Positions 1 to 12,966 of a stretch of 64,000 bases of DNA are shown in pieces. The notes beneath the pieces are model-generated. The model searched no databases, was not told the DNA's origin, and saw nothing but the letters and a program-made list of their open reading frames with translations. The stretch comes from an uncultured Anaerolineales bacterium (lineage in GTDB: Bacteria; Chloroflexota; Anaerolineae; Anaerolineales; JABWBV01). Position 1 is the first letter of the stretch. Each line of letters starts with the position of its first letter. The stretch spans positions 68,934 through 132,933 of the forward strand of contig CAZAYY010000010.1 of assembly GCA_964489525.1 (NCBI GenBank), in the 5' to 3' direction. A program made the position numbers and the translations under genes.

Positions 1-218
1 TCCTCACCATGATAGGCGAGCAGACCGAGTGGATGTTCACTTTTAGCCAGGAGATTGCAGAAACTGGCACGATTCCCTGTGCTCCCAGCAGCGTGAAAGT
101 CTTTGACCGGGATGATGAACCACATACACCAGCAACCATTCGTGGCCTTATCGCGGTTAAATAGCTTTGCTACATCATCAATAAAATCACTCGTTACCTT
201 TTCGATTCTAAGCATCAT
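1..218 (-). CDS. GNAT-family N-acetyltransferase, N-terminal part (gene runs off the left edge)
   Basis: Own translation of the minus strand from tandem ATG ATG at 218/215, with GGAGG 5 nt upstream: MMLRIEKVTSDFIDDVAKLFNRDKATNGCWCMWFIIPVKDFHAAGSTGNRASFCNLLAKSEHPLGLLAYHGE. Open to the window edge, so absent from the ORF track. The CWCMWF / GLLAY pattern recalls GNAT acetyltransferases. Confidence 0.45.
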   Translation of the reverse strand, partial: MMLRIEKVTSDFIDDVAKLFNRDKATNGCWCMWFIIPVKDFHAAGSTGNRASFCNLLAKSEHPLGLLAYHGE

Positions 219-269
219 CTCTACCTCCATCTCGCTAAAGGGTGCTTTCTGGGTGATGAAAATTATACT

Positions 270-324
270 CCTTGCCCCTGCCTCTGCCCGGCGTTATAAT
301 CTTTTACATGAACGCACTATTTTC
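270..324 (+). repeat. 55-bp direct repeat copy 1 carrying a sigma70-like promoter (TTGCCC 272-277, 17-bp spacer, TATAAT 295-300) and an ATG 7 nt after the -10
   Basis: 41/44 identity over the first 44 bp with 2702-2745. The ATG at 308 begins the MNALFSD... ORF. The spacing is compatible with a leaderless transcript. Confidence 0.6.
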
Positions 325-562
325 TGACACCGCCCCCGAAGCCGAAGCCGTGCTGATCCGCCTGCTGCGCCAGGCGCCATCCTGGCGTAAGCTGGAGATG
401 GTAGATCAGTTAAACCAGTCGGTAAAACTTTTAGCCTTGACCGGTTTACACCAGCGTTTTCCGTTAGAAGATGATGAACGCATTCGCAGGCGATTGGCCG
501 ACCTGTTGTTGGGGGAAGAAATGGCGTTGAAAGTATATGGCCCACTTCCTCAGGAAGCATGA
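308..562 (+). CDS. small hypothetical protein (84 aa), upstream partner of the nucleotidyltransferase gene
   Basis: In-frame ATG of ORF 272..562 (MNALFSDTAPEAEAVLIRLLRQ...). The stop overlaps the next start (ATGA at 559-562), indicating translational coupling. No family recognised. Confidence 0.5.
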   Translation: MNALFSDTAPEAEAVLIRLLRQAPSWRKLEMVDQLNQSVKLLALTGLHQRFPLEDDERIRRRLADLLLGEEMALKVYGPLPQEA

Positions 563-1140
563 GCATGTTACCAGAATCAGTCAGCGTATTAATGTCGGTA
601 GTGATGGTTTTCGAGCGGTTGGGCATTCCTTACCTGGTTGGCGGCTCCATGGCTTCCGCTCTTTACGGTGTTGCGCGCTCGACCCTGGATGCGGATATTG
701 TTGCTGATATGCGGCAGAATCAGGTAAGCGCCCTGGTCGCCGCGCTTGGCGATGACTTCTATGCGGATGATCAAATGATCCGCGGGGCGATTGAACATCG
801 CGGTAGATTCAATTCGATCCACCTCACAACGATGTTTAAGGTGGATGTCTTTATTCGCAAAGAACGCCCTTTTGACCAGATACAATTCGAACGACGGGTT
901 GAGCAGATTTTCGCCGCCAACCCTGTACAAAAAGCCTTTATGACCACCGCCGAGGACATCATCCTCGCCAAGCTTGAGTGGTATCATCTGGGTAACGAAA
1001 TTTCCGACCGGCAGTGGCGGGATATTCTGGGGGTTCTGAAAGTACAGGCCGGGCGGCTGGATTATGATTATTTGCAGCAATGGGCCGCCGAACTGAATGT
1101 CGCAGACCTGCTTCAGCGTGCCCTGAAAGAAAGCGAATAA
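559..1140 (+). CDS. Pol-beta-fold nucleotidyltransferase family protein (MNT/AbiEii-like), putative toxin-antitoxin-type module with 308..562
   Basis: GGSMASALYGVARSTLDADIV matches the G[GS]-x9-13-DxD nucleotidyltransferase signature. 193 aa in a two-gene overlapping arrangement. Confidence 0.6.
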   Translation: MSMLPESVSVLMSVVMVFERLGIPYLVGGSMASALYGVARSTLDADIVADMRQNQVSALVAALGDDFYADDQMIRGAIEHRGRFNSIHLTTMFKVDVFIRKERPFDQIQFERRVEQIFAANPVQKAFMTTAEDIILAKLEWYHLGNEISDRQWRDILGVLKVQAGRLDYDYLQQWAAELNVADLLQRALKESE

Positions 1141-1148
1141 ACGATAGC

Positions 1149-1565
1149 ATAAACCTCTTCACCCACGCCAAGCACTGTACTCAGCGCCAACGACACGCAT
1201 GAAATCCGAAGCGCCGCTCGCCGCACGCATGCGCCAGCGCACCCTGGATGAGTATATCGGCCAAGCGCAACGCAGTTGCACCGAGCACCATCCTCGGCCC
1301 CGGAAAGCTGCTGCGCCGGGCCATCGAGGCGGACCGGCTGTTTTCGTCCATCATCCTGTGGGGGCCGCCGGGCACGGGCAAAACCACCCAGGCCATGTGC
1401 ATTGCCAACCAGACCCAATCGCATTTTGAAACCCTCTCGGCTGTACTGGATGGCAAAGCCCGGCTGGTGGAAGTGGTTGAAAAAGCCCTGGAGCGCCGCA
1501 AGCTGTACCGCAAACGAACCATCCTTTTCGTGAAGGACATGGTAGAAACACTTAATTGGGCCTAA
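1149..1565 (+). pseudogene. rarA: degenerate duplicate of the 5' third of rarA (start codon ATG->ATA, two ~18-19 nt insertions, frameshifted)
   Basis: Aligns with 4279-4650 at offset 3130/3094. The core 1289-1512 versus 4383-4606 has only 6 mismatches in 224 bp, while the flanks are much more diverged. The reading frame is split between ORFs 1199..1429 and 1248..1565. It ends at a TAA inside GCCTAAC (1560-1566). Confidence 0.8.
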
Positions 1566-1625
1566 CTACTAATTATACTGCTAATATGCAGTATAGCATG
1601 CGGTTTGATATAATATACTGCATAT
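1560..1625 (-). promoter_or_regulatory. candidate attI / intI regulatory region
   Basis: GTTAGGC (canonical GTTRRRY integron core) reads on the minus strand at 1566-1560, about 140 bp upstream of and divergent from intI. An AT-rich tract holds three copies of the 8-mer TATACTGC: 1574-1581 direct, 1588-1595 inverted (forming TATACTGC-N6-GCAGTATA), and 1614-1621 direct. Confidence 0.35.
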
Positions 1626-1703
1626 GTCCTAAAAAGTCTTTTCTGCACGGATACAATACCAATGCCATAATTCTAGCATGGATCTTAAAAAACGGAGTCT
1701 TCT

Positions 1704-2696
1704 TTGACCGAACCCATTCCCCAAAAACCCAAAAAACTGCTCGACCAACTGCGCGACGCCATCCGCATCAAGCACTATTCTTATTCCACCGAGAAAACGT
1801 ATGTCCATTGGGCAAAGCGTTACATTCTCTTTCATAAAGCGAAACAAGGTTTCGCCCGTCACCCAGCAGAAATGGGCGCGCCGGAGATTGAAGCCTTTCT
1901 TTCACACCTGGCCCAAGAAGCTAATGTCTCAGCGTCCACCCAAAACCAGGCTTTCAATGCCCTGCTTTTTCTCTATCGGAATGTGCTGCAGATTGAATTG
2001 GATGCCCCGATCCATGCTTTGCGCGCCAAACGCGGCCAACACTTACCAACGGTGCTCTCCAGGCATGAAGTGATTCAGGTGCTGGACGGGATGCAGGGGC
2101 TGCACCAGCTCATGGCTCGCCTGCTGTACGGCTGCGGCCTGCGCTTGATGGAATGCCTGCGCCTGCGCGTCAAAGACATTGACTTTGAGCAGTCCCAAAT
2201 TGTCGTGCGCGAGGGCAAGGGCGAAAAAGACCGCCTGACCATGCTGCCCACCAGCCTGGTGGAACCGTTAAAAGCTCAGATTGCATTTGTGCACAAACAG
2301 CACGCCAGTGATCTGTCCAATGGCTTTGGCTCGGTGGAGCTTCCATTTGCCCTGGCGCGCAAATATCCCAACGCCGACAAAGAATTCGCCTGGCAGTATG
2401 TTTTTCCCTCCGACCGGCTCTCAACCGACCCGCGCAGTGGGATTACCCGCCGCCATCATCTGGATCCCAGCGGGTTGCAGCGCGCGGTGAAGGCAGCAGC
2501 GAAACTATCGAAAATCAATAAGCCAGTCAGCCCGCACACCTTCCGTCATTGCTTTGCCACCCACCTGCTGGAGGCTGGGTACGATATCCGCACCGTGCAG
2601 GAACTGCTCGGACACAAGGATGTCAAAACCACGATGATCTACACCCACGTGCTCAACCGCGGTCCGAAGGCGGTGCGCAGCCCATTGGATGAATAG
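1704..2696 (+). CDS. intI: integron integrase (IntI-type tyrosine recombinase), apparently intact
   Basis: 330 aa with a TTG start and GGAG 7 nt upstream. Colinear with IntI1 as I recall it: [57 protein letters not shown]. The IntI-specific insertion is present ([37 protein letters not shown]), as are [12 protein letters not shown] and [14 protein letters not shown]. Confidence 0.9.
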
Positions 2697-2701
2697 GTGT
2701 A

Positions 2702-2756
2702 CCTTGCCCCTGCCCCTGCCCGGCGTTATAATCTTTGCCATGAACATCCTGTTTCC
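2702..2756 (+). repeat. 55-bp direct repeat copy 2 (promoter TTGCCC 2704-2709 / TATAAT 2727-2732, ATG 2740)
   Basis: Starts 5 nt after the intI stop. Its ATG opens only a 13-codon ORF, MNILFPNLRPSRK (2740-2781), which shares MN.LF with the 308 gene. That ORF's TGA abuts the ATG of the AlbA_2 gene. Confidence 0.6.
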
Positions 2757-2782
2757 CAATCTCCGCCCCAGCAGGAAATGAA

Positions 2783-4165
2783 ATGCCCGGTGAACTAGAT
2801 TCCTGGCTGCAAGTTGGCGAAGGCGAACAACTGGAGTTCAAGCTCCAGTGGGCTGATTCGGCTTTGGAAACGCTGGCCGCATTCGCCAACACGCGTGGCG
2901 GAACGTTATTGGTCGGCGTTTCGGATGCTGGCCAAATCAGCGGCTGGAATGGGAATGATAAAGAGCAGCGAGCGATTGTGGATCAAATCGCGGACGGACT
3001 GCGCCTGGAACCCCTGGTGAGAATTATTTCGGATGAACGCGGTCGGGTACTGTGCATTTCGGTCGCTGCCGCCGGTTTACCGATTTCGCTGCGTGGACGC
3101 TATTTCCAACGCCTGGGCAACACCACCCGCCAACTTTCTCCCGAAACGTTAGGCCGCCTGTTTATCGAAAAATCTGGCGCTTCCTGGGACAAACAACCCA
3201 CCGCCGCCGGCCTGGACGAGATTGACCCGGCTGCCGTGCAGCGTTTCTTGCGCCTGGCGCATGACCGGCTGCCTGAAGCCAGCGAGACTGAACCGGTGGA
3301 GAGTGTCTTACGCAAGTTGGATTTATTAACCGATGATCAACTGCGGCGCGGGGCCTTACTGTTATTTGGCCGGCGGCCACAAAGCGATTTGCACATGGCA
3401 TATGTGCGTATGGGGCGTTTCAAGACTGATACCATCATCGTGGATGATAAATTCATCGAGGGCAACCTTTTCCAGCAGCTTGACCAGGTGATGCAGTATT
3501 TCCGCCAATATTTGCAGGTGCGTTTGGAGATCAATTCACGCATCAGCGAGGGCAAAAGCATGTTGGAGGCTATCCAGCGCCAGGATATTTGGGATTATCC
3601 ATTGGACGCGCTGCGCGAAGCGGTCATCAATGCCCTGATTCATCGCGATTATTTTGACTCTACCGGGCATACCAGCATTCGGGTGTATGACGACCGAGTC
3701 TATATATGGAACCCGGGCGAACTACAGCCAGGTATGACCGTAGATGACCTGCTGCGCCGCCCCCATGACTCACGTCCGCGCAATCCGTTACTGGCGCGGG
3801 TTTTCTACTATGCCGGCTGGATCGAACATTGGGGCAGCGGCGTCACTCGCATCCTGGACTTGTGCCAGGCGCAGGGATTGCCGGCGCCGCAGTTTCGTTC
3901 TGCCAGTGGGCGCTTTGAAGTCGCTTTCACCAAAAGCCTGTACACTGTAAACAGGATGCTTCCAGATGGATTGAGTGAGCGCCAGACCAAGACGCTCCAA
4001 TGGGTCTTAGAGCACAGTCGGATCAGTAATTCAGAGTATCGAAGCCTTTTCCAGGTGTCAGCGCGTACAGCCAGCCGGGAATTGGCAGCGTTGGTACAAC
4101 AAGGCATTTTGGAACAGATAGGGCGCAGCGGCCCCTTTGTATACTACCAATTAAAGACATCATAA
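2783..4165 (+). CDS. AlbA_2 (Schlafen-like) DNA-binding domain protein with RecG-C-terminal-like HATPase_c_4 domain and C-terminal wHTH
   Basis: N-terminus GEGEQLEFKLQWADSALETLAAFANTRGGTLLVGVSDAG (AlbA_2 pattern). Middle EAVINALIHRDYFDSTGHTSIRVYDDRVYIWNPG (HATPase_c_4 pattern). C-terminal wHTH-like SERQTKTLQWVLEHSRISNSEYRSLFQVSARTASRELAALVQQGIL. Confidence 0.7.
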   Translation: MPGELDSWLQVGEGEQLEFKLQWADSALETLAAFANTRGGTLLVGVSDAGQISGWNGNDKEQRAIVDQIADGLRLEPLVRIISDERGRVLCISVAAAGLPISLRGRYFQRLGNTTRQLSPETLGRLFIEKSGASWDKQPTAAGLDEIDPAAVQRFLRLAHDRLPEASETEPVESVLRKLDLLTDDQLRRGALLLFGRRPQSDLHMAYVRMGRFKTDTIIVDDKFIEGNLFQQLDQVMQYFRQYLQVRLEINSRISEGKSMLEAIQRQDIWDYPLDALREAVINALIHRDYFDSTGHTSIRVYDDRVYIWNPGELQPGMTVDDLLRRPHDSRPRNPLLARVFYYAGWIEHWGSGVTRILDLCQAQGLPAPQFRSASGRFEVAFTKSLYTVNRMLPDGLSERQTKTLQWVLEHSRISNSEYRSLFQVSARTASRELAALVQQGILEQIGRSGPFVYYQLKTS

Positions 4166-4168
4166 TCA

Positions 4169-4224
4169 CGCCAATCACGCCAAGATTGCGCCATCAATGC
4201 GCCAAATGCGCCACAAACGCGCCA
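4169..4224 (+). repeat. array of six helically phased CGCCA(A) motifs
   Basis: CGCCA starts at 4169, 4178, 4189, 4200, 4209 and 4220 (spacings 9, 11, 11, 9, 11; mean 10.2 bp). The array lies immediately after the AlbA_2 stop and 55 bp upstream of rarA. Two 19-bp direct repeats follow (4235-4253 and 4257-4275, 15/19 identical). Confidence 0.6.
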
Positions 4225-4278
4225 AACATAGTCAAGATGAAACATTAAGTGACATGATATGAAACGGTAACTGACACC

Positions 4279-5691
4279 ATGGACCTCTTCACCCACGCCA
4301 TGAACGACCGCATGAAAAGCGAAGCCCCGCTCGCCGCCCGGATGCGCCCGCGCAACCTGGACGAGTATATCGGGCAGGAACACATCCTCGGCCCCGGAAA
4401 GCTGCTGCGCCGGGCGATTGAGGCCGACCGGCTGTTTTCGTCCATCATCCTGTGGGGGCCGCCGGGGACGGGCAAAACCACCCTGGCCATGTGCATTGCC
4501 AACCAGACCCAATCGCATTTTGAAACCCTCTCGGCTGTACTGGATGGCAAAGCCCGGCTGGTGGAAGTGGTTGAAAACGCCCTGGAGCGCCGCAAGCTGT
4601 ACCGCAGGCGCACGGTGCTGTTCGTGGACGAAGTTCACCGCTGGAACAAGGCCCAGCAAGATGCCCTGCTGCCGCATGTGGAAAACGGAACCATTACCCT
4701 GATTGGCGCCACCACTGAAAACCCGTATTTCGAGGTGATTGGGGCGCTGGTTTCCCGCTCGCGGGTTTTCCAACTGCGCCCGTTGGAAAACGAGCATGTG
4801 CGCCTGCTGCTGGAACGTGCCCTGCACGACCCGGAACGGGGTTATGGCAAATTGAAGGTGCAGGTCGCGGAAGATGCCTTTGCACACCTGATTAACGTGG
4901 CCGGGGGAGACGCTCGCAATGCCCTCAACGCCCTCGAACTGGCGGTGGAATCCACCCCGGCGGGGGAGGATGGCATCATTCAGGTGACGCTGGACGTGGC
5001 CCAAGAATCCATCCAGCGCCGGGCGGTGCTGTACGACAAGGACGGCGACGCCCACTACGATACGATTTCGGCGTTCATCAAATCCGTGCGCGGCTCGGAC
5101 CCCGATGCGGCCCTCTACTGGCTGGCCAAGATGCTCTACGCCGGGGAAGACCCGCGCTTTATTTTGCGCCGGCTGATTATCCTGGCGGGGGAAGATATTG
5201 GCATGGCCGACCCGCAGGGCATGGTGGTGGCCAGTGCGGCTGCCCAGGCGTTTGACTACATCGGGCTGCCCGAGGGCATTTACCCGATTGTCCATGCCGT
5301 GCTCTACCTGTCCACGGCGCCCAAGTCCAACTCGGCCACCCACTATTTCAAAGCGTTTGAGCTGATTGAACAGCAGGGTAAAACCGATGTCCCGCTGCAC
5401 CTGCGCGACAGCACCCGCGACGCCAAAGCCCTGGGGCACGGTAAAGATTACCAGTACCCCCACGAAGACCCGGCGCATTTTTTGCCACAGCAGTACCTGC
5501 CCCGCGAGGTGTTGGGCACTTATTTCTACCGGCCTTCCAGCCAGGGCTACGAGGCAGAAATTGCCGACCGCCTGGAGCGCTGGCGCGCCGCCCAGCAGGC
5601 CGCCCTGGGGATTGAAGAAACCCAAACCCTGCCAGAACTTAGCGAAAAGAAAATCATCGAAATCAAGGGCAAACACAAGCTCAGTAAATGA
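4279..5691 (+). CDS. rarA: replication-associated recombination protein A (RarA/MgsA AAA+ ATPase)
   Basis: 470 aa. Walker [49 protein letters not shown], and the C-terminal MgsA_C-type YQYPHEDP motif. Confidence 0.92.
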
Positions 5692-5697
5692 TATGAT

Positions 5698-6348
5698 ATG
5701 CGGGCAATCCAGAAACCCATGCCCCAGGAGTTCGCGATGCCCACCATCTTACTGATCCGCCACGGAGAAAACGAATACACCCGCACAGGCAAGTTAGCAG
5801 GCCGCCTGCCCGGTGTACACTTAAACGAAACTGGCCGCCAGCAGGCTGAAAAATTGGCCAGGGTGTTGGCCAATGCCCCGGTCAAAGCCATCTATGCCAG
5901 CCCGTTGGAACGCACCCAGGAAACCGCTGCGCCCCTGGCTCAGGCGCTGGGGCTGGATGTAACCATCCGCCCTGGCTTAATCGAAACCGGCATTGGCGAT
6001 TGGGAAGGCCAAACCCTCAAAGCACTGCGCAAGTTGAAAGAATGGAAGGTCGTCCAGGCCAACCCGGCCCGCTTCCGCTTTCCCAATGGCGAATCGTTTT
6101 GGGAATGCCAGCAGCGCATCGTGGCGGAGATTGAAGCGATTGCCGCCCAACACGAACCCAAAGATCTGCTGGTGTGCGTCAGCCATTCCGACCCCATCAA
6201 ACTTGCCGTTGCCCACTACCAGGGCCTGGCGCTGGATTTATTCCAACGCATCATGATTTCCACGGCCTCGATTACCACGCTGTATATAGGGGAACACGGT
6301 GCCGCTGTGGTCAACCTGAACGTTCCGGCGGTTTTGGAGTTTCGTTAA
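5698..6348 (+). CDS. histidine phosphatase family protein (phosphoglycerate-mutase-like; MSMEG_4193-type putative phosphomutase)
   Basis: ILLIRHGENEY (RHG motif), ASPLERTQETA, SHSDPIK. The real start may be M8 or M14 (5719/5737). Confidence 0.8.
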   Translation: MRAIQKPMPQEFAMPTILLIRHGENEYTRTGKLAGRLPGVHLNETGRQQAEKLARVLANAPVKAIYASPLERTQETAAPLAQALGLDVTIRPGLIETGIGDWEGQTLKALRKLKEWKVVQANPARFRFPNGESFWECQQRIVAEIEAIAAQHEPKDLLVCVSHSDPIKLAVAHYQGLALDLFQRIMISTASITTLYIGEHGAAVVNLNVPAVLEFR

Positions 6349-6533
6349 GTTTCCCACCACTGGCAAAAGGTCCCTCCAGCTGCGCCGTTCGAGACGACAT
6401 ATCAAAAGTGCCGTCGGCTGCCATTCTGAACTTTTTCCGTTTGTTCTCCCCAAAAGGGAGCACGCAAATGTTGTTATTGCATCCATTCCCCATCCCCCTG
6501 TCCCCCTTCCCGGCGGGAAGGGGGAATTCTTAG

Positions 6534-6583
6534 GGATTGGCCACCTGGCGGGTATTGCCCGCCAGGTGGCCAATCCCTTTTTT
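6534..6583 (+). terminator. intrinsic terminator-like hairpin
   Basis: Perfect 19-bp inverted repeat GGATTGGCCACCTGGCGGG / CCCGCCAGGTGGCCAATCC with a 5-nt loop, followed by CTTTTTT. A second small hairpin, CCCCCTTCC-N-GGAAGGGGG, lies at about 6502-6525. Confidence 0.6.
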
Positions 6584-6813
6584 ACTCCCCGCCCCAAAGC
6601 CTGGGGGGTGGTTGGGGGTGGGGTTGGAAAGTGAGAACCGCAAATTCTAACAACATTTGCGGCCACCTCCCCAAAACCACAGGCGGTAACCGGGGGTTGA
6701 TTCTGGTATACTTCCCATACAAAAGCATCCCTGCGCCTCCTACCGGAGGGCCAGGCCATGCGGTAGGATGATATTTGGAAAATTCTTTGATTTGAGGCTG
6801 GTACATTTTTCCT

Positions 6814-7371
6814 ATGGCACAAGAAATTGAACTGAACCCCGTAACCCATATCACCGTAGACGCAATCGGGCAGCCCGGTAAGCGCGTTTTTTACATCCAG
6901 GGGCAAAAAGATGCCCGCACCATCACCCTGATTATGGAAAAGTTCCAGGTGCAGTCCCTGGCAGTGCATGTGGAACAGTTTATGGCCGAACTGCAGCAGA
7001 AATTCCCTCACCTGGCAGAAGCCTCATCCGAATACAACGAAGTCAACATGCGCATCCAACCCCCTGTAGACCCGCTGTTTCGGGTCAGCGAAATGTCGCT
7101 GGCTTATGACAACAGCCTGGACATGGTGGTGATTGCTGCCAACGAAATGATGCCTGAAACCGGGGAAGAAGAAACCACAGAAAAAAGCGCAGAAGAAGAC
7201 GCTGAAGGCCGGATCGTACGGTTTTGGTGTTCTCGCTCCCAATGCAGGGCGATGGCCCATTGGGGCATGGAAGTGGTAGGGCGCGGCCGGCCTTTGTGCA
7301 CCCAGTGCGGCGCACCCATTGACCCTGAAGAAGGCCATTTTTGCCCCAAGAAAAACGGGCATCGCAAATAG
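6814..7371 (+). CDS. DUF3090 family protein
   Basis: MAQEIELNPVTHITVDAIGQPGKRVFYIQG... with a C-terminal CTQCGAPIDPEEGHFCPKKNGH zinc-ribbon-like motif. The family assignment is from memory of the actinobacterial/Chloroflexi DUF3090 family. Confidence 0.75.
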   Translation: MAQEIELNPVTHITVDAIGQPGKRVFYIQGQKDARTITLIMEKFQVQSLAVHVEQFMAELQQKFPHLAEASSEYNEVNMRIQPPVDPLFRVSEMSLAYDNSLDMVVIAANEMMPETGEEETTEKSAEEDAEGRIVRFWCSRSQCRAMAHWGMEVVGRGRPLCTQCGAPIDPEEGHFCPKKNGHRK

Positions 7372-7381
7372 CGGAGGTTGT

Positions 7382-8122
7382 GTGACCGCGCCAGACCCCA
7401 ACCAGAACCCAGGCGAACTTTTGCCCCTGCTCGAAAAGGGAGAAATTTCGCTCGAAGGGCAGTTCGTTTGGGGCTCCAACTATACCCTGCTGGTCAATGT
7501 TACCAATGGCAGCCAGCACACCCAGGCAGTGTACAAACCCACCCAGGGCGAGCGCCCCTTGTGGGATTTTCCAGCCGAAACCCTGGGGCTGCGCGAAGCT
7601 GCAGCTTACCAGGTGAGTGCATTTTTACAATGGCCGCTGGTACCGCCCACCGTCTACCGCCGCGATGGCCCGATGGGGCCGGGGTCTTTGCAGGCATTTA
7701 TTGAACATGACCCGGAATACCATTTTTTCACTTTCAGCGAAAGCGACCGCGCCAGGCTGCGCCCGGTGGCCCTGTTCGACCTGGTGATTAACAACGCCGA
7801 CCGCAAAGGCGGCCACCTGCTGGTGGATTCCCAGGGCCAAATCTGGGCCATTGACCACGGCATTTGTTTTCATGAAATGCCCAAGCTGCGCACCGTAATT
7901 TGGGATTTCGTAGACGAACCCCTGCCGCCCGAACTGTGCACAGGCCTGGAGCAGCTGCGCGACCAGCTTTCCGCGGGCAGCGCGCTGGAACAAAGGCTGC
8001 TCGCATGCCTGTCTGCGGGGGAACTGCGGGCCATGCAGCGGCGGGTTGACCGGATCTTAACCCGGCAAAAATTCCCACCCCCGCCCCGCAACAGCCGCCC
8101 CTACCCCTGGCCGTTGATTTAA
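7382..8122 (+). CDS. SCO1664 family protein (PI3/PI4-kinase-like fold)
   Basis: GTG start at 7382 with GGAGG at 7373-7377, just after the DUF3090 stop. Kinase-like NNADRKGGHLL and IDHGICFH motifs. Confidence 0.75.
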   Translation: MTAPDPNQNPGELLPLLEKGEISLEGQFVWGSNYTLLVNVTNGSQHTQAVYKPTQGERPLWDFPAETLGLREAAAYQVSAFLQWPLVPPTVYRRDGPMGPGSLQAFIEHDPEYHFFTFSESDRARLRPVALFDLVINNADRKGGHLLVDSQGQIWAIDHGICFHEMPKLRTVIWDFVDEPLPPELCTGLEQLRDQLSAGSALEQRLLACLSAGELRAMQRRVDRILTRQKFPPPPRNSRPYPWPLI

Positions 8123-8153
8123 CCTGGCTGAACTGCTTCATTCGAGGTGACCC

Positions 8154-8795
8154 GTGAATTTCCCTGAACAAACCGCAGCCCCAAACGCCCTGTATACGCA
8201 TCAAACCGAACCCCTGCTCATTGTCATTTGCGGCACTTCCGGCGTGGGGAAAGATACCGTCATCCACCGCATCAACCAGCACTCCACACAATTTCACTTC
8301 GTGGTAACCACAACCAACCGCGCCAAACGCACCAAAGAAGTGGATGGGGTGGATTACATCTTCGTCAGCGATGAAGAATTTCAACGCATGATCGAAAACA
8401 ACGAACTGCTCGAATACGCCAGGGTGTATGATCATTACAAAGGGGTAAGCAAAGCCCAGGTGCAGCAGGCTTTTGACAGCGGGAAAGATGTCATCGTCCG
8501 GGTAGACGTTCAAGGTGCAACCACGCTGCGCCGGCTTTTTCCCGATGCTTTGCTGATTTTCATCACCACCCGCACCGAAGAAGAGCTGCGCACCCGCCTG
8601 CAAAAACGCAACACCGAAAGCGCCGAACAAATTGAACAGCGCATTGCAGCTGCCCGGGTGGAGCTGGAAAGCCTGCCCATTTTCGATTATGTGGTATTCA
8701 ATGAACCGGATATGCTGGAAAAAACAGCGCAGCTTGTGCTGGGCATCATCCAGAGTGAACACTTAAAAGTCCATCACAGGAAAGTGAATTTGTGA
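8154..8795 (+). CDS. gmk: guanylate kinase
   Basis: P-loop CGTSGVGKDT, TTTNRAKRTKEVDGVDYIFVS, ELLEYARVYDHYKG. Confidence 0.85.
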   Translation: MNFPEQTAAPNALYTHQTEPLLIVICGTSGVGKDTVIHRINQHSTQFHFVVTTTNRAKRTKEVDGVDYIFVSDEEFQRMIENNELLEYARVYDHYKGVSKAQVQQAFDSGKDVIVRVDVQGATTLRRLFPDALLIFITTRTEEELRTRLQKRNTESAEQIEQRIAAARVELESLPIFDYVVFNEPDMLEKTAQLVLGIIQSEHLKVHHRKVNL

Positions 8796-9592
8796 ATCCA
8801 ACCCCCTATTCCAACCCACCCCCAACCGAAGGCGCCATCCCCGACGCACCACCGCCTAACTCCGTCTCTGTCCAGGTTGCCTATGCCGCCCAAACCCCCT
8901 GGGTAAGCTACACCATCATGGCCATCACTGTGCTGGTCTACCTGGCCCAGATGGGCACCCAGGTTTTCTATGGGGTAGATTACCCGGCGGCCTACGGGGT
9001 GAAATATGCCCCGCTGATTTTGGAAAATGGGCAGTGGTGGCGCCTGTTCACGCCCTTGCTGCTGCATGGCAGCATCATCCACATTGCTTTCAATATGTAC
9101 GCCCTCAACCTGATTGGGACCGAACTGGAAAAACATTACGGCCACGGACGCTACCTGATGCTATACCTGGGGGCGGGTTTTGCTGGCAATGTGCTGTCCA
9201 TGCTGCTGACCCCCGCCCCATCCCTGGGGGCCTCGACCGCCTTATTTGGCATGCTTGGGGCACAGGGGATTTTTATCTACCTCAATCGGGGGTGGATGGG
9301 CAGCCGCTCGCGGCGTGCGCTTGGCAGCATTGTCCAAATCCTGGTGATTAACCTGCTGATTGGCCTGGCACCCGGACTGGACAACTGGGGGCATTTGGGT
9401 GGGCTGATTGGCGGGGCGATTTTCGCCTGGTTTGCCGGCCCTGTGTTGGCGTTGGAGGGGATTTACCCCGATTACCGGCTGGCCGATAAACGCAGCCTGC
9501 AGCAAGCCTGGCTTGCGATTGCCGGAGTGTTCTTGCTTTTTGCAGCGCTGGCTTTCAGCGCGTACTTTGTGGATTTTTGGCCGGGGGTTTAA
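8792..9592 (+). CDS. rhomboid family intramembrane serine protease
   Basis: WWRLFTPLLLHGSIIHIAFNMYAL, GASTALFG (GxSxxxF) and HLGGLIGG. Polytopic. Confidence 0.85.
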   Translation: MNPTPYSNPPPTEGAIPDAPPPNSVSVQVAYAAQTPWVSYTIMAITVLVYLAQMGTQVFYGVDYPAAYGVKYAPLILENGQWWRLFTPLLLHGSIIHIAFNMYALNLIGTELEKHYGHGRYLMLYLGAGFAGNVLSMLLTPAPSLGASTALFGMLGAQGIFIYLNRGWMGSRSRRALGSIVQILVINLLIGLAPGLDNWGHLGGLIGGAIFAWFAGPVLALEGIYPDYRLADKRSLQQAWLAIAGVFLLFAALAFSAYFVDFWPGV

Positions 9593-9607
9593 CGGGCTGC
9601 TGGGGAA

Positions 9608-10387
9608 TTAAGTGTATTTGGGTTCGCGCTTCTCGCGGAATGCAGCCAGCCCTTCTTTGTGTTCGGGCTGCTGCCCGGCAATATCCTGGACATGGGCTTC
9701 GTAATCCAACACTTCTTCCAGGTTGGGAAAAACCGCCTTGTTAAAGTCGCGCTTGGCCAAACCCATGGCATGCACCGGACCTTTGGCCAGTTCAGCAGCC
9801 CAGGCTGCAGCCGCCTCCGTTAGGGTTTCGGCTGGCACCACCCGGTTGACCAGCCCCCAGTCCAGGGCCTGCTCGGCGGTTATGGGCTGATTGCTGAAGG
9901 CAAACTCGGCGGCGCGCCCCAGGCCAATCAGCCTGGGCAGGGTGAGCGAAACTGCCGAATCGGGCGCCAGGCCAATGCCCAAGAAGCCCACCACAAAACG
10001 GGCGTTCTCGGCAGCAATGCGCAAATCGCAGGCCAGGGCAATGCCCAGGGCAGCGCCTGCCACCGCACCGTGAATGGCGGCAATGACCGGTTTTTCCAAC
10101 TGGCGCAGCTGCAAAACCAGCGGGTTATAGGTGTTTTGCAAATGTTTGCGAAAAGAAACATGCTCCCCTTCACCAAACTCAGATACATCCTGCCCGGCGC
10201 TGAACAGCTTCCCGGCGCCTGCCAAAACCACCACCCGGGTTTGCGGGTCGCGCCCGGCCTGCTTAAGCTGCTGCAGAAGGGCCCGCGTCATTTCGGAGTT
10301 AAACGCGTTGGCCTTTGGGCGGTTGAGGTAAATCGTCAGAACGCCTTCGTGCTGTTCCGAATGGATCGGGGTTTGCATTTCACTCAT
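9608..10387 (-). CDS. enoyl-CoA hydratase/isomerase family protein
   Basis: MSEMQTPIHSEQHEGVLTIYLNRPKANAFN..., AGKLFSAGQDV, AAIHGAVAGAALGIALACD. Start moved to ATG 10387, which overlaps the upstream gene's stop by 8 nt. ATG 10378 is an alternative. Confidence 0.85.
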   Translation of the reverse strand: MSEMQTPIHSEQHEGVLTIYLNRPKANAFNSEMTRALLQQLKQAGRDPQTRVVVLAGAGKLFSAGQDVSEFGEGEHVSFRKHLQNTYNPLVLQLRQLEKPVIAAIHGAVAGAALGIALACDLRIAAENARFVVGFLGIGLAPDSAVSLTLPRLIGLGRAAEFAFSNQPITAEQALDWGLVNRVVPAETLTEAAAAWAAELAKGPVHAMGLAKRDFNKAVFPNLEEVLDYEAHVQDIAGQQPEHKEGLAAFREKREPKYT

Positions 10388-10748
10388 CGTCTTCCTCGTC
10401 AAATTCATCATCAAAACCGAGTTCCAGTTCGATATCGTCGTTCGGGATGCGCACCCAAAGCAGCAGCACATCTCCCTCGTTCGTAGCAACCGAACGGGCG
10501 GCCACAATCGGCGTTTCAGCCTCCAAGCCGTCCATGTTGCGGTAAACCAGGTGCATCGGTTCCTGCGCCCGCCAGGCGCGGTGGCAGCGCTCCACCAGGG
10601 AAGCGCCGTTAAAGGTGCGCAGCCGGGTGACGGCTAAATCGGCCAGGTTGGCGCTTTCATTCAATCCGTAAGCCCAACCTTCCACAACATTTTCAAAAAC
10701 CGGGGGAGGCCCCTCAATAATCGTAATCTGGTTGTCGTTGGTGTCCAT
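10380..10748 (-). CDS. hypothetical protein with acidic C-terminus
   Basis: Start at ATG 10748 (MDTNDNQITIIEGPPPVFE...) preceded by GAGGA. No family recognised. Confidence 0.5.
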   Translation of the reverse strand: MDTNDNQITIIEGPPPVFENVVEGWAYGLNESANLADLAVTRLRTFNGASLVERCHRAWRAQEPMHLVYRNMDGLEAETPIVAARSVATNEGDVLLLWVRIPNDDIELELGFDDEFDEEDDE

Positions 10749-10880
10749 GTTATCCTCAAACGGCTTAATCAGCAGGCAGGGTAAATATCCATAGGGTGTT
10801 GGCCCTTTCCCGATCATCGGGGAACCATAAGCACAGGTGATGGGAGATATCATACCATAAACGCTTTTTCATGTAATCAC

Positions 10881-11010
10881 GTTTTCAACCGTGGTCCCCA
10901 TCCACCCCGTAGGGGTGAAACGATTATAGAAACCGGCACAGCCTGCCCGCCAATGCCGTAGGCATGGCATAATCTGCCCCTTGCCAACAGCGACGAAGAT
11001 TTTTTGCATG
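10881..11010 (-). repeat. ~130-bp interspersed repeat, copy A (inverted relative to copy B at 36257-36386)
   Basis: Ungapped alignment of the reverse complement with 36257-36386 gives 83/130 identities (56/80 in the core), including the identical 10-mer ATGCCATGCC (13/14 identical over the flanking GAT(T/A)ATGCCATGCC). Confidence 0.55.
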
Positions 11011-11078
11011 GTCGCCACCCACCCCCACAGGGGATATAATTTCAGGGTCAAGACCAGGCAGTTGCAGGAGGCTGCGCC

Positions 11079-11477
11079 ATGTATAAATTGATGATTTTGA
11101 TTGAACAACCCGAAGACCCCGAAACTTTTGAAGACCTTTGGCCCCAGTTCATCCAGTGGGCGGACCAAATTCCCGGCCTGGTGCGCATCATCAGCAGCGT
11201 GGTGGAATACCCCATCCAGGAGCGCTACCCATGTATGCGCGTCCATGAGCTGCTGTTTAACACCCTCGAAGAAGCCGAAGCCGGCTTGAACTCGGTGCAT
11301 GGCACGAAAGCAGGCAAAACCCTCAACCTGATGACCCAGGGCAAAGTGACCCTGCTCATGGCTTTGCACCTTGAAGACGAAGCCCTGAATGTGCAACACC
11401 CGGCGCGGGCCAAAGAACCTCCACCCCCGCAGCCCCTGCCCACCACAGCCGCCCCACCGAACGAGGACGCGGCTTGA
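11079..11477 (+). CDS. EthD domain / Dabb-like small protein
   Basis: MYKLMILIEQPEDPETFEDLWPQFIQWADQIPGL... resembles the EthD family. Pro-rich tail. Confidence 0.55.
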   Translation: MYKLMILIEQPEDPETFEDLWPQFIQWADQIPGLVRIISSVVEYPIQERYPCMRVHELLFNTLEEAEAGLNSVHGTKAGKTLNLMTQGKVTLLMALHLEDEALNVQHPARAKEPPPPQPLPTTAAPPNEDAA

Positions 11478-12226
11478 AACCCATCCCGCTGAAGCCGGAA
11501 GCCCGCCCCAACCGGGGACTGCGGTTGGTGGTGGGGGTGATTGTCGTGCTGGCAGCGGCCGCGGGCTACCTTGGATACAGCTGGTTGGCACGCAGCGGGC
11601 AGCGCTACAGCCAGGTTTGGGCCTGGTTTCAAGACCCGGCCAGCCTGGAAGCCCAACGTATGCAAATCGGAACCCGCTGCGGCGATGCCCCCTTTCTCAT
11701 GCCCACCAACGGGCTGGTGGGCTTCATTTGGGGCGACTCCTTTCGCCCGGGGCACACCCACCAGGGGTTAGACATCTTCGGCGGCGAAGGGCTGAACGTC
11801 ACCCCGGTGGTGGCGGCTTACCCAGGCTACCTCACCCGAGAGGCCGACTGGAAATCTTCCCTGATTATCCGCATCCCATCCGACCCGCTCAACCCGCAGC
11901 GCCAAATTTGGACTTACTATACCCACCTGGCCGACAGCCAGGGCAATTCGTATATCGTGCCCGATTTTCCCCCCGGAACCCGCGAGGTATATGTGGAGGC
12001 GGGTACCCTTCTCGGCTACCAGGGCAACTACTCCGGCGACCCAAACAACCCCACCGGGGTTCATCTACACTTCTCGATTGTTAAAGACAACGGGCAGGGC
12101 GGCTACCTGAACGAACTGGACATTGATAACACCTACGACCCATCTCCCTATCTCAACCTGGAGGCCAACGCCTCTGAAAACCAGGACGATATCCCCTTCT
12201 GCCCGCCAGAACAGGTGCGGCCATGA
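11474..12226 (+). CDS. M23 family metallopeptidase, membrane anchored
   Basis: N-terminal TM helix, HQGLDIFG (HxxxD) and GVHLHFSIV (HxH). Confidence 0.8.
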   Translation: MKPIPLKPEARPNRGLRLVVGVIVVLAAAAGYLGYSWLARSGQRYSQVWAWFQDPASLEAQRMQIGTRCGDAPFLMPTNGLVGFIWGDSFRPGHTHQGLDIFGGEGLNVTPVVAAYPGYLTREADWKSSLIIRIPSDPLNPQRQIWTYYTHLADSQGNSYIVPDFPPGTREVYVEAGTLLGYQGNYSGDPNNPTGVHLHFSIVKDNGQGGYLNELDIDNTYDPSPYLNLEANASENQDDIPFCPPEQVRP

Positions 12227-12966
12227 GCAGCCCAACAAACACCGGAGGTAGCATGTCAGAATTTGCAGACAAAGTTGTTCTGATAACCGGCGCCGGGCGC
12301 GGCCTGGGGGCTGCGCTCGCCAGGGCCTTTGCCGCCCGGGGTGCCCGTTTGGCCATCAACGATATCAACCCCGACCACGCCGGGCGCGTGGTGGACGAGA
12401 TTCGGGCAGCGGGTGGGCAGGCCAAAGAATACCTGGTAGACATTTCCAAAAAAATGCCCGTGCAGCAAATGGCGAACGCGATTGAAGACGATTGGGGGCG
12501 GGTGGACATTGTGGTCAACGCCGCGGCGGTGCGGCCGCAAAAGCCCCTGCTGGACCTGGACGAATGGGACCTGCACCGGGCGGTGGAAGTGAACCTGGTG
12601 GGGCCTTTTTTGGCGGCCCAGGTTTTTGGGCGGCTGATGCGCGCCCACGGGCAGGGCGGGGTGATCGTCAACCTGAGCAGTTCATTTGACTACGCCCAAC
12701 AGGCCGGGGCAGGCGCGGTGTATTTCGCCAGCAAAGGCGGGCTGGAAGCACTCACCCAGGCCGCCGCCCGCGAACTGGCAGGGTTCAATGTGCGCATCTT
12801 TGCATTACGGCTGGGACTGGTTACCGAAAGCGGCCCCTTTTCCGCCGCGCCGCGCCCGTCGAATACGCTGGAACAGCCCATTGAAACCACGCAGGAACTG
12901 GCCGCAACGGTGTTTGCCCTGTGCAGCCCGGCAGCAGCCCACCTAAGCGGGCGGGTGTTCGGCTAG
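12223..12966 (+). CDS. SDR family oxidoreductase (FabG-like)
   Basis: VVLITGAGRGLGAALA (TGxxxGxG), NAAAV, YFASKGG (YxxxK). Confidence 0.85.
   Translation: MSSPTNTGGSMSEFADKVVLITGAGRGLGAALARAFAARGARLAINDINPDHAGRVVDEIRAAGGQAKEYLVDISKKMPVQQMANAIEDDWGRVDIVVNAAAVRPQKPLLDLDEWDLHRAVEVNLVGPFLAAQVFGRLMRAHGQGGVIVNLSSSFDYAQQAGAGAVYFASKGGLEALTQAAARELAGFNVRIFALRLGLVTESGPFSAAPRPSNTLEQPIETTQELAATVFALCSPAAAHLSGRVFG

Follow-up and report, generated by a model that had tools for sequence, protein, structure and literature searches.

The window, a stretch of 64,000 nucleotides (64 kb) of an Anaerolineae-type (Chloroflexota) chromosome, carries near its left end an integrase gene, intI, which lies between a decayed fragment of rarA and an intact copy of the same gene (Table 1). 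The intI product matched the TIGR02249 profile with 472.8 bits over residues 12-329 (cutoff 265), and aligned to VchIntIA (PDB 2A3V) with an E value of 3.5e-90. In this alignment all the catalytic residues R-K-H-R-H-Y are retained, within the motifs GLRLMEC (R), GKGEKDR (K), HTFRHCF (H and R), LGHKDV (H), and IYTHV (Y), and the IntI-specific insert between patches II and III, which ends in RRHH, matches the insert of VchIntIA. The sequence GGAG (1693-1696) is found 7 nt upstream of the TTG start codon; in the alignment, this codon falls in one column with the ATG of homologues. The dN/dS ratio of intI against six homologues is 0.05-0.08. Judged by these sequence features, the window integrase is a bona fide IntI under strong purifying selection, and it is predicted to recombine attI with folded attC, as homologues with 64-93% identity adjoin attC arrays. 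The clade has thousands of close homologues in metagenomes, and the window IntI is only ~53% identical to the class 3 plasmid IntI. No close relative of this clade was found in the plasmid collection (top match 64.8% identity) or in the viral collection (top match 58% identity), nor was any circular, plasmid or phage copy found in the collections searched.

Table 1. Features of the intI-rarA region in the window
Feature	Position	Strand	Basis
72-codon 5' part of an ORF running off the window edge, outside the integron	1..218	-	ORF frame
Repeat D4 copy 1: promoter and first codons of the 84-aa gene	270..322	+	Repeat search, promoter scan
Two overlapping genes: 84 aa (308-562) and 193 aa (559-1140)	308..1140	+	Colinear with L170
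rarA': decayed duplicate of the first ~125 rarA codons; left direct repeat	1141..1541	+	Repeats D1, D2, D9; alignments
Tail: ~24 nt of non-rarA sequence (..GTAGAAACACTTAATTGGGCCTAA) from rarA' to the attI crossover	1542..1565	+	Multi-genome alignment
attI core GTTAGGC (plus strand GCCTAAC)	1560..1566	-	Conservation boundary in relatives
attI proper and intI promoter/leader	1566..1703	+	Comparison with relatives, motif counts
intI: integron integrase, 330 aa, TTG start	1704..2696	+	TIGR02249, VchIntIA alignment
Repeat D4 copy 2: promoter (2704-2732), then 13-codon remnant (MNILFPN...) of the 84-aa gene start	2702..2782	+	
ORF460: AlbA_2, HATPase_c_4 and C-terminal HTH	2783..4165	+	Pfam hits
Right direct repeat: 5' end of intact rarA	4268..4631	+	Repeat search, alignments
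Full-length rarA/mgsA, 470 aa	4279..5691	+	NF009881 (724 bits), Pfam MgsA_C domain

The heptamer GCCTAAC, which lies 138-144 nt upstream of the intI start, is by itself not above chance (5 in the window versus 6.3 expected). Its meaning comes instead from a conservation boundary that falls at this position in more than 15 relatives. In 17 related loci (L001-L004, L006, L081, L084-L086, L089-L091, L093, L102, L106, L164, and L167), similarity to the window starts right after (G)YTAAC, and none is seen leftward. Because similarity begins exactly after YTAAC and the left side is unrelated, the core marks the attI crossover, which we place between A1565 and C1566, i.e. GCCTAA/C on the plus strand and G/TTAGGC on the minus strand. 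Cassettes adjoin the equivalent core in L164, L168, L169, and L081. By this comparison, attI is located divergently upstream of intI, in the classical geometry.

Between the core and intI, several further elements can be recognized. The sequence TACTAATTATAC adjoins the attI core, and the extended -10 element TGATATAAT of the intI promoter is found at 1603-1611. The octamer TATACTGC occurs exactly three times in the window, always inside 1574-1621, where 0.49 copies per window would be expected by chance and three copies were reached in 3 of 100 shuffles. Two copies constitute a perfect palindrome, TATACTGC-N6-GCAGTATA (TATACTGCTAATATGCAGTATA), at 1574-1595, and the third lies at 1614-1621. 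The repeats are kept in relatives and, across 1.44 Mb of related sequence, are confined to attI/Pint regions, which fits a candidate platform-specific binding site. Whether the palindrome might be a LexA-type box serving a larger regulon was also considered; no additional copy turned up in the window or across the 1.44 Mb of related loci, and its spacing, CTG-N8-CAG, is unlike that of the E. coli LexA box. With regard to a cassette promoter Pc directed towards the array, the minus strand carries a conserved TATAAT (ATTATA at ~1571-1576 on the plus strand) a few nucleotides from the crossover; it has no acceptable -35 element and was not called by the promoter scan. Relative to most relatives, the window attI has a 15-nt deletion (GGACTTCTGTTATAC). 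An earlier note on this DNA had proposed an intact integron integrase encoded by a 330-aa TTG ORF, a GTTAGGC core (GCCTAAC at 1560-1566) in the classical attI position, and three repeat copies adjoining it, and had made its case depend on the core being kept in related genomes; all of these stand, coordinates included.

The left flank belongs to the host chromosome. Window positions 317-1532 are colinear, at 79% nucleotide identity, with positions 7753-8923 of the integron-free locus L170, through the two-gene pair and into rarA. (Comparison loci, denoted by L and a number, are all metagenome or MAG contigs, of which L083 resembles a long-read assembly prone to indels.) In the four integron-free loci (L170-L173) rarA comes directly after the pair; it is full-length in L170 and L171 and runs off the contig end in L172 and L173. 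The longer contigs L170 and L171 continue from rarA into His_Phos_1 and DUF3090. On the evidence of this gene order, the pair is a native upstream neighbour or operon partner of rarA and no cassette, contrary to the earlier note, which had taken it for a reverse-oriented TA-like cassette. The 'nucleotidyltransferase' label of 559-1140 is based on a sub-threshold DUF6036 match (18.7 bits, cutoff 23.6). The same note had read the edge ORF as a partial GNAT cassette, but this ORF matches nothing in Pfam or NCBIfam, has no attC nearby, and does not resemble the GNAT cassette that L164 carries. Nor is the left flank as a whole cassette material, as had been supposed, since the DNA that adjoins attI (1141-1565) is the rarA 5'-end duplicate plus the tail.

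Repeat D4 has only two copies in the window. The first carries a sigma70-like promoter, TTGCCC-N17-TATAAT, at 272-300 (10 of 12 consensus matches), and L170 has the corresponding GTTATAAT and start upstream of its pair; by this correspondence, copy 1 supplies the pair-rarA operon with its native promoter. The second copy, behind intI, has a homologue directly 5' of rarA in L165, L083, L102, and L106. D4 (GGCGTTATAAT...) was also tried as half of an attC and discarded, given its sigma70 promoter score, the lack of a partner arm and of a model hit, and its being the native promoter in L170. A remnant of the 84-aa gene start is seen behind both promoter copies.

Cassettes were sought with R1, a covariance model trained on 20 attC sites from relatives, which a very different attC class could escape. 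In this model 95.4% of cells are paired and compensatory changes are seen in 14 of 21 pairs, a result equalled by none of 500 shuffles. R1 finds non-training sites in 19 loci (L002, L003, L005, L012, L016, L030, L040, L043, L072, L164, L168, L169, and L085-L091), and attC arrays upstream of intI in ~20 related loci; its hits lie on the plus strand except for one duplicate, and upstream of intI except for two in L081. True attC sites in relatives score 25-107 bits. In the window, the best score was 9.8 bits (E 1.2) overall and 9.1 bits in 1-6000. A hairpin scan of 1-6000 gave no candidate with RYYYAAC/GTTRRRY ends, and an Rfam scan of 1-8000 gave chance matches only, to a hairpin at 6520-6590. 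No attC was found in either orientation in the window, neither in the 4 kb right of intI nor in the ~1.56-1.7 kb visible on the left, in agreement with the earlier note, which had seen no convincing attC and no cassette array. Since intI is present and R1 finds no attC, the integron is, as far as these searches of the visible sequence can tell, in an empty, cassette-free In0 state, the left flank being visible for 1.56 kb only. In the sense of IntegronFinder, In0 denotes an intI recognised by both profiles with no attC up to 4 kb away on each side. A complete integron would have at least one attC-bearing cassette, and the window has none.

The relatives show what this attI would be expected to receive. 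In those with IntI 64-93% identical, cassettes are inserted exactly at the core and transcribed away from intI, and they end in attC sites of ~60-130 nt, the bottom strand of which coincides with the sense strand of intI; nearly all of these sites lie 5' of intI, unlike the inverted-integrase arrangement of the Treponema/Chlorobi type. In L164, which has an IntI 92-93% identical at the intI-rarA locus, a GNAT cassette with an 86-bit attC adjoins the equivalent core; its array sits at its attI, and the short contig stops before any rarA' or tail is visible. L168 also has a GNAT cassette at the equivalent position. L083, at the same locus as the window, contains between the rarA' tail and attI a 164-aa minus-strand ORF and a half-attC remnant (local alignment p = 0.002), which we regard as a single decayed cassette. 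Its segment 8868-9012 was rejected as a full attC, because it shows no folding (z +0.95 and +1.63) and no model hit and only its 3' 37 nt match attCs; no attC was found by the model in the 10 kb to its left.

The architecture around attI and intI is that of an insertion into rarA. Compared with the integron-free L170 (pair, rarA, His_Phos_1, DUF3090), the window has an insertion of 3094 bp which consists, in order, of the tail, attI, intI, promoter P, ORF460, and a second rarA 5' end. Direct repeats of ~390 bp bound the insertion, and therefore an intact rarA is kept downstream. The left copy, rarA', has lost its ATG and contains 17-nt and 19-nt insertions; repeat D1 pairs 1289-1537 with 4383-4631 at 94% identity, and a multi-genome alignment indicates that the two rarA copies are homogenised within the genome along the repeat length. 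The tail is also present in the rarA' copies of L083 and L102; the junction can be written GTGAAGGAYRT-N5-GAANCNCTTAATTG. We considered whether rarA' ends exactly at the attI crossover, as the product of an event between attI and a secondary site in rarA, and rejected this, since the shared ~24-nt tail lies between. ORF460 is an accessory gene found only in the window; in L083, L164, and L165, intI is followed directly by rarA. Downstream, rarA is followed by His_Phos_1, DUF3090, and a PI3/4-kinase-like gene, a block syntenic with L083, L165, and L170, and the short contig of L164 stops at the first ~26 codons of His_Phos_1. No rarA synteny was found among 80 GTDB representative loci, the informative loci being metagenome contigs.

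Comparison among these contigs suggests that the platform of attI, promoter, and intI has moved, probably via rarA homology. The rarA locus is occupied by an integron in L083, L164, and L165 and is empty in L170-L173. The unit in permuted order, attI-intI-P-rarA'-tail, occurs in other contexts in L102 and L106, and an internally deleted form of it is found in L084, L111, L167, L169, and L081, and probably in L001; in L084, the truncated rarA piece 3' of intI scores 17.5 against the window rarA', where shuffles score 8.8 +/- 1.2. The IntI tree mixes the context types, L167 being sister to the window yet having an L081-type flank. Nucleotide identity falls from 83-91% in intI to ~80% in the 5' part of rarA, ~70% in its 3' part, and ~65% in the downstream genes, and protein identity is 87-92% for IntI, 80% for RarA, and 51-64% for the neighbours. 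The dS of intI (0.55-0.71) is about half that of rarA (1.3-2.0), a difference to which codon constraint or rarA saturation could contribute. It is because intI with a rarA piece recurs in other contexts, and because of this lower dS, that movement is suggested.

Taken as a whole, we consider it quite probable that the locus is a chromosomal integron platform (intI, promoter/operator, and attI) in the In0 state, with the function predicted for it and an origin by homologous integration. IntI would be expressed from the extended -10 promoter, overlapped by the operator-like TATACTGC sites, and would recombine the window attI with the folded bottom strands of attC sites on free cassettes, so that cassettes would be placed between 1565 and 1566 and read leftward. 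As for its origin, a circular molecule [attI-intI-P-(cargo)-rarA'-tail] would have entered the chromosomal rarA by a single-crossover (Campbell-type) homologous integration, as the direct-repeat architecture is the expected product of such an event.

An alternative, which we regard as unlikely though worth weighing, is a tandem duplication in situ, where an ancestral attI-intI-P-(pair)-rarA was doubled, by unequal exchange or by an IntI-mediated event between attI and a secondary site in rarA, and the upstream attI-intI was later deleted, leaving P-pair-rarA'-tail-attI-intI-P-...-rarA. That D4 precedes the pair and also stands behind intI would follow from this, and partial tandem intI copies in four other integrons (L052, L058, L126, and L128) and the cassettes on both sides of intI in L081 are in keeping with it. 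However, L170 has promoter-pair-rarA without any integron, and therefore D4 copy 1 needs no lost integrase. Moreover, a candidate match to the 3' end of intI in the sequence before D4 copy 1 was not significant (p = 0.08-0.17) and was rejected, the rarA'/tail junction is ~24 nt off the attI crossover, and none of the loci examined has two full platforms.

It is also rather improbable that the platform is an inactive relic, its attI harmed by the 15-nt deletion and its intI kept for another role or by chance. The empty array, the sharing of the deletion with L167, and the interrupted intI frames in two relatives (L004 and L006) would agree with decay. Against it stand the low dN/dS and the retention of all catalytic residues, the conservation of core-proximal attI, palindrome, and promoter in relatives (the deletion lies outside the core-proximal segment), and the cassettes carried by the nearest same-locus relatives.

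Two further readings appear very improbable. IntI might be the integrase of a small element that targets rarA site-specifically, as tRNA- or gene-targeting islands do, and brings a surrogate rarA 5' end; repeats of the target 5' end do flank a segment that encodes a tyrosine recombinase at its edge, and the target is left intact, but the repeat homology stops ~24 nt short of the single IntI core site, the corresponding stretch of the right copy (4626-4665) has no matching core, and the lengthwise homogenisation of the ~390-bp repeats speaks for homologous rather than site-specific exchange. IntI recombines attI with attC and also acts on secondary sites of the GTT type; it is not known to use sites such as these. 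Equally, the GNAT-like ORF and the pair might be cassettes of a complete integron, with undetectably divergent attC sites and an array continuing to the left, a reading suggested by the resemblance of the gene content (small genes, among them a TA-like pair and an ORF like an acetyltransferase) to typical cassette cargo, by GNAT cassettes at the same position in L164 and L168, and by the great abundance of the 193-aa family on short contigs, but opposed by the joining of the pair to rarA in integron-free loci, a rarA pseudogene rather than a cassette adjoining attI, the lack of attC in either orientation, and the unrelatedness of ORF 1-218 to the L164 GNAT.

An integron with intI and attI but no attC is termed In0 in the usage of IntegronFinder, 24% of genomic intI genes lack attC, and Chloroflexi carry integrons (Cury et al. 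2016, PMC4889954). Like the In0 of pVS1, the window combines a validated IntI with a divergent upstream attI-like site and no attC in the searched flanks. Unlike that In0, it is chromosomal rather than borne on a plasmid or Tn402, its attI is defined by comparison, and the empty site adjoins a duplicated housekeeping-gene fragment. With the VchIntIA/attIA/VCR integron of V. cholerae the window shares the protein family and the divergent intI/attI arrangement, and its relatives have arrays of ~129-nt family-like attC repeats in which the intI-sense strand is the attC bottom strand. Sedentary chromosomal integrons are defined by a fixed locus across a lineage and a large array (more than 19 attC sites in Cury et al. 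2016, PMC4889954); in contrast, the window has no array, and the locus is present or absent by lineage (L164, L165, and L083 versus L170-L173). The platform also lacks an E. coli-type LexA box and has instead a TACTGC-N6-GCAGTA palindrome confined to related platforms.

Mobile integrons of classes 1-3 (Tn402/Tn7-borne) resemble the window platform in occurring in several genomic contexts, but no transposition genes, inverted repeats or IS elements are adjacent in the window, whose flanks are chromosomal and syntenic, unlike those of classes 1-5; its mobility, if real, would rest on the hitch-hiking rarA fragment. Campbell-type insertions and islands are likewise flanked by direct repeats, with one truncated and one intact copy. 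Here, in difference from these, an integron platform makes up the cargo, neither a vector nor a replicon was identified, and the mechanism is deduced from architecture only.

An In0 integron in Chloroflexota adds little in itself, as such integrases and arrays have already been catalogued in the phylum. Of more interest is a well-defined attI outside Proteobacteria, the comparison defining both the attI and a platform-specific, operator-like palindrome of a large IntI clade from the environment. Few attI sites are known from integrons outside Proteobacteria, and they lie beyond what IntegronFinder is able to search for.

The relocation of chromosomal integrons is still an open problem of integron evolution. 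Tentatively, we raise the possibility that the integron platform itself is a movable module, a unit [attI-intI-promoter-truncated rarA-tail] which would loop out as a circle and re-enter either through RecA-type recombination at rarA or through its own attI, the rarA route duplicating the rarA 5' end and leaving the gene intact. If so, this would explain the near-identical IntI at the rarA locus of Anaerolineae despite neighbours only 51-64% identical, the truncated rarA piece behind intI in unrelated contexts, the cassettes on both sides of intI in L081, and the empty site elsewhere in the group. In that case, the window would show a freshly installed, still empty integron, and 'sedentary' integrons could spread without transposons or plasmids. 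With an empty site (L170), an empty integron (the window), one cassette (L083), multiple cassettes (L164), and rarA footprints elsewhere, this series of loci offers a testable case of a chromosomal integron platform relocating between genomes.

The earlier note took the 330-aa product of intI for an integron integrase. Against NCBIfam TIGR02249 'integron integrase' it reaches 472.8 bits (cutoff 265); it also matches Pfam PF00589 and PF13495, and its alignment to VchIntIA (PDB 2A3V; E 3.5e-90) covers the full length. All the catalytic residues (R, K, H-x-x-R, H and Y) are kept in this alignment, and the IntI-specific segment (...RRHH) is present. The dN/dS of intI is 0.05-0.08, and the comparisons show an integron integrase that is intact and maintained by selection. 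In several integrons less closely related to this one, the full intI gene is directly followed by a second, partial copy of its 3' region. The intI frames of two MAG contigs are interrupted (L004 10001-10981 and L006 4471-5450; stops after 32 and 130 codons), and L004 has six co-oriented genes (5.5 kb) between attI and the first attC.

The GCCTAAC heptamer upstream of intI is not above chance in the window (5 found, 6.3 expected). The TATACTGC octamer has only three copies in the 64-kb window, all within 1574-1621 beside the proposed core, and copies one and two together make a perfect 22-nt palindrome. Comparison loci (L numbers) around IntI homologues came from genomes in GTDB, from metagenomes and from look-ups of exact proteins. 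With the intI starts aligned, one conserved block (...YTAAC|TATTAATTATACGGAC...TATACTGCAAATTCGCAGTATAG...GGTATAATATACTGCATAAT) is seen in every close relative, the sequence left of AAC| is unrelated between loci, and contigs L102 and L167 start right at this boundary. Such a conservation edge with unrelated left flanks is what an attI crossover at G|TT on the opposite strand should produce. Conservation begins exactly after YTAAC, which bears out the GTTAGGC core seen in the earlier note, and comparison delimits a predicted attI in the classical orientation. L167, the nearest IntI relative of the window (94%), shares with it a 15-nt deletion (GGACTTCTGTTATAC) that lies between the palindrome and the core-proximal TAATTATAC. 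In 1.44 Mb (window plus loci) there are 8 instances of the palindrome (TACYGY-N6-RCRGTA), each at the attI/Pint position, and it is thus platform-specific. Many contigs stop 0-400 nt upstream of intI (L001, L007, L008, L011, L013, L026, L031, L034, L102, L167 and others), two of them exactly at the attI core, which is consistent with assemblies breaking where the cassette junction varies between strains.

Scanning the related loci for hairpins revealed many RYYYAAC...GTTRRRY sites, and 20 attC sites of relatives were aligned to build covariance model R1. In this alignment 95.4% of the proposed R/L-box helix is paired, 14 of its 21 pairs show compensatory changes, and none of 500 shuffles was as good. 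R1 recovers attC outside the training set in ~20 further loci. All genuine matches lie on the intI-sense strand, which the extrahelical-T arm GCGGCGTCGGC identifies as the attC bottom strand, and all are upstream of intI, the classical geometry, except two in L081. In L081 (also L082), same-orientation attC flank intI on both sides (7481 and 8661 upstream, 12087 and 13318 downstream; region 7481-13448), so the platform appears embedded in a cassette array. The best R1 score anywhere in the window is 9.8 bits (E 1.2), and within 1-6000 it is 9.1 bits; both hits are trivial mini-hairpins, in agreement with the earlier failure to see convincing attC by eye. The window, with its short visible left flank, contains no cassette or attC. 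Since intI is present and attC absent, this is In0 by IntegronFinder definition, a genuine chromosomal integron in a state already known: 24% of genomic intI are without attC, and integrons have been noted in Chloroflexi (Cury et al., PMC4889954).

The left flank, which the earlier note read as cassettes, proved to be otherwise composed. Adjoining attI are a rarA pseudogene (rarA') and a 24-nt non-rarA tail (GTAGAAACACTTAATTGGGCCTAA) that joins it to the attI crossover. Segment 1289-1537 is 94% identical to 4383-4631 (period 3094 bp), and rarA' has lost its ATG and is broken in frame by two insertions (17 and 19 nt). The two-gene pair (308-1140), proposed as a reverse-oriented nucleotidyltransferase cassette, is together with rarA' colinear with the integron-free metagenome/MAG loci L170-L173, where rarA directly succeeds the pair. 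In L170 and L171 the pair and full-length rarA are followed by His_Phos_1 and DUF3090 with no integron, and window 317-1532 is 79% identical to L170 7753-8923. This order makes the pair a native rarA neighbour and rules it out as a cassette. The 72-codon ORF at 1-218, suggested to be a partial GNAT cassette, matches no family and does not resemble the true GNAT cassette of L164. For the 193-aa protein of the pair (559-1140) there are 5890 homologues at E<=1e-10, mainly on contigs of 1-3 kb; one NCBI contig encodes both an identical protein (P0121) and a paralogue at 81% (P0151).

Features of the window and of the comparison loci (P, operon promoter copy behind intI)
Feature	Locus	Position	Strand	Description
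rarA'	window	1141-1541		direct repeat of first ~390 bp of rarA/mgsA
rarA' private insertions	window	1181-1197 and 1264-1288		
rarA' private insertion	L083	~8549-8568		
rarA' private insertion	L102	~1217-1233		
GCCTAAC heptamer	window	1560-1566		138-144 nt before intI start
TATACTGC copy	window	1574-1581	+	
TATACTGC copy	window	1588-1595	-	
TATACTGC copy	window	1614-1621	+	
intI	window	1704-2696	+	330-aa ORF, TTG start, GGAG 7 nt upstream of start
Second operon promoter	window	2702-2782		with 13-codon remnant of first gene of the pair
ORF460	window	between second promoter and rarA		AlbA_2/HATPase_c_4/HTH
Intact rarA/mgsA	window	4279-5691		NF009881, 724 bits
Insertion order	window			tail, attI, intI, second operon promoter, ORF460, second rarA 5' end
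Gene order	L165			IntI 91% to window; intI-P-rarA-His_Phos_1-DUF3090-PI3/4K-like
Gene order	L164			IntI 92-93% to window; ...attC (86 bits)-GNAT cassette-attI-intI-rarA
Gene order	L083			IntI 87% to window; PIN toxin pair-rarA'-tail-[164-aa minus-strand ORF]-attI-intI-P-rarA-His_Phos_1...
Partial second intI 3' copy	L052	3540-3671		
Partial second intI 3' copy	L126	1550-1981		
Partial second intI 3' copy	L128	1953-2357		
Partial second intI 3' copy	L058	5456-5823		

Compared with the empty site L170, the window holds an insertion of 3.1 kb with a direct repeat of the rarA 5' end on either side. The platform lies in this insertion, inside a chromosomal block that is otherwise conserved. The gap separating ORF460 from rarA contains, at 4166-4230, 6-7 closely spaced GCGCCAA(A/T)/CACGCCAA motifs that look iteron- or operator-like. 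A perfect inverted repeat (21 bp, 5-nt loop; 6532-6578) is found downstream of His_Phos_1; Rfam gave only chance miRNA-type matches for it, and it is probably a terminator or REP-like hairpin.

Three relatives also have intI beside rarA. In L083, the segment of the 164-aa ORF contains a 37-nt attC remnant (p = 0.002), so the tail-attI site can be empty, as in the window, or carry one decayed cassette. The 10 kb on the left side of rarA' in that locus yielded no attC, which suggests that rarA' marks where the array ends distally. The attI of L164 has a multi-cassette array, and this short contig stops before any rarA' or tail could show. In L168, a DUF6036-like two-gene pair lies right after intI between ~45-nt direct repeats with a hairpin (GCTCCTGACGGTTCGGAGC; 2590-2640 and 3495-3545), which may mark an insertion boundary of a different kind. 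Compared with L083, L164 and L165, the window shows protein identities of 87-92% for IntI and ~80% for RarA, but only 51-64% for His_Phos_1, DUF3090 and the kinase-like gene. Nucleotide identity drops stepwise from intI (83-91%) through rarA 5' (~80%) and rarA 3' (~70%) to the downstream region (~65%), and dS is 0.55-0.71 for intI versus 1.3-2.0 for rarA.

In an alignment (A5) of four rarA fragments (window, L083, L102 and L106) with four full copies, the window, L083 and L102 fragments have the same truncation point and tail (GTGAAGGAYRT..GAA.C.CTTAATTG), whereas the full genes have neither; the L106 contig stops before this point. Each truncated copy has its own 17-20-nt insertion at a differing place in the first ~110 nt. 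The body of a fragment is nearly identical to the full copy of the same genome, pointing to gene conversion or to a mosaic origin by homologous exchange. L102 and L106 (IntI 67%) have attI-intI-P-rarA'-tail and then an unrelated gene, a circular permutation of the window order. In L084, L111, L167, L169 and L081, the ~100 nt past the intI stop are the promoter and an internally deleted rarA' (L084 versus window rarA': local score 17.5; shuffles 8.8 +/- 1.2), with rarA synteny absent downstream. The post-intI segment of L001 is homologous to that of L111, with no significant match to rarA' itself. Just past the deleted remnant, L084 1295-1320 is an inverted match to L081 6831-6856, the end of a DDE_3 (IS630-like) element adjoining the distal attC. 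Context types are mixed in the IntI tree; L167 is sister to the window, yet has an L081-type flank.

The platform at rarA would be most simply explained by integration of a circle, in which a circular [attI-intI-P-(cargo)-rarA'-tail] molecule would enter rarA by a single homologous crossover; the same rarA repeats would permit loop-out. Pointing to this model are the direct repeats, the fragment/tail junction common to the fragments, the permuted form of the unit at other loci and an intI younger than its flanks. A search for a vehicle among plasmids and phages found none. A tandem duplication followed by loss of one platform seems less parsimonious, because the first promoter copy is already accounted for by the empty site and an intI remnant sought there was not detectable. 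As the homology between the repeats stops ~24 nt from the only core site, a site-specific entry into rarA mediated by IntI is unlikely.

In summary, attI and a putative operator are well delimited here for an abundant environmental IntI clade. Furthermore, these data, mainly from metagenome assemblies, make a circumstantial but coherent case that the platform has relocated together with a rarA fragment.
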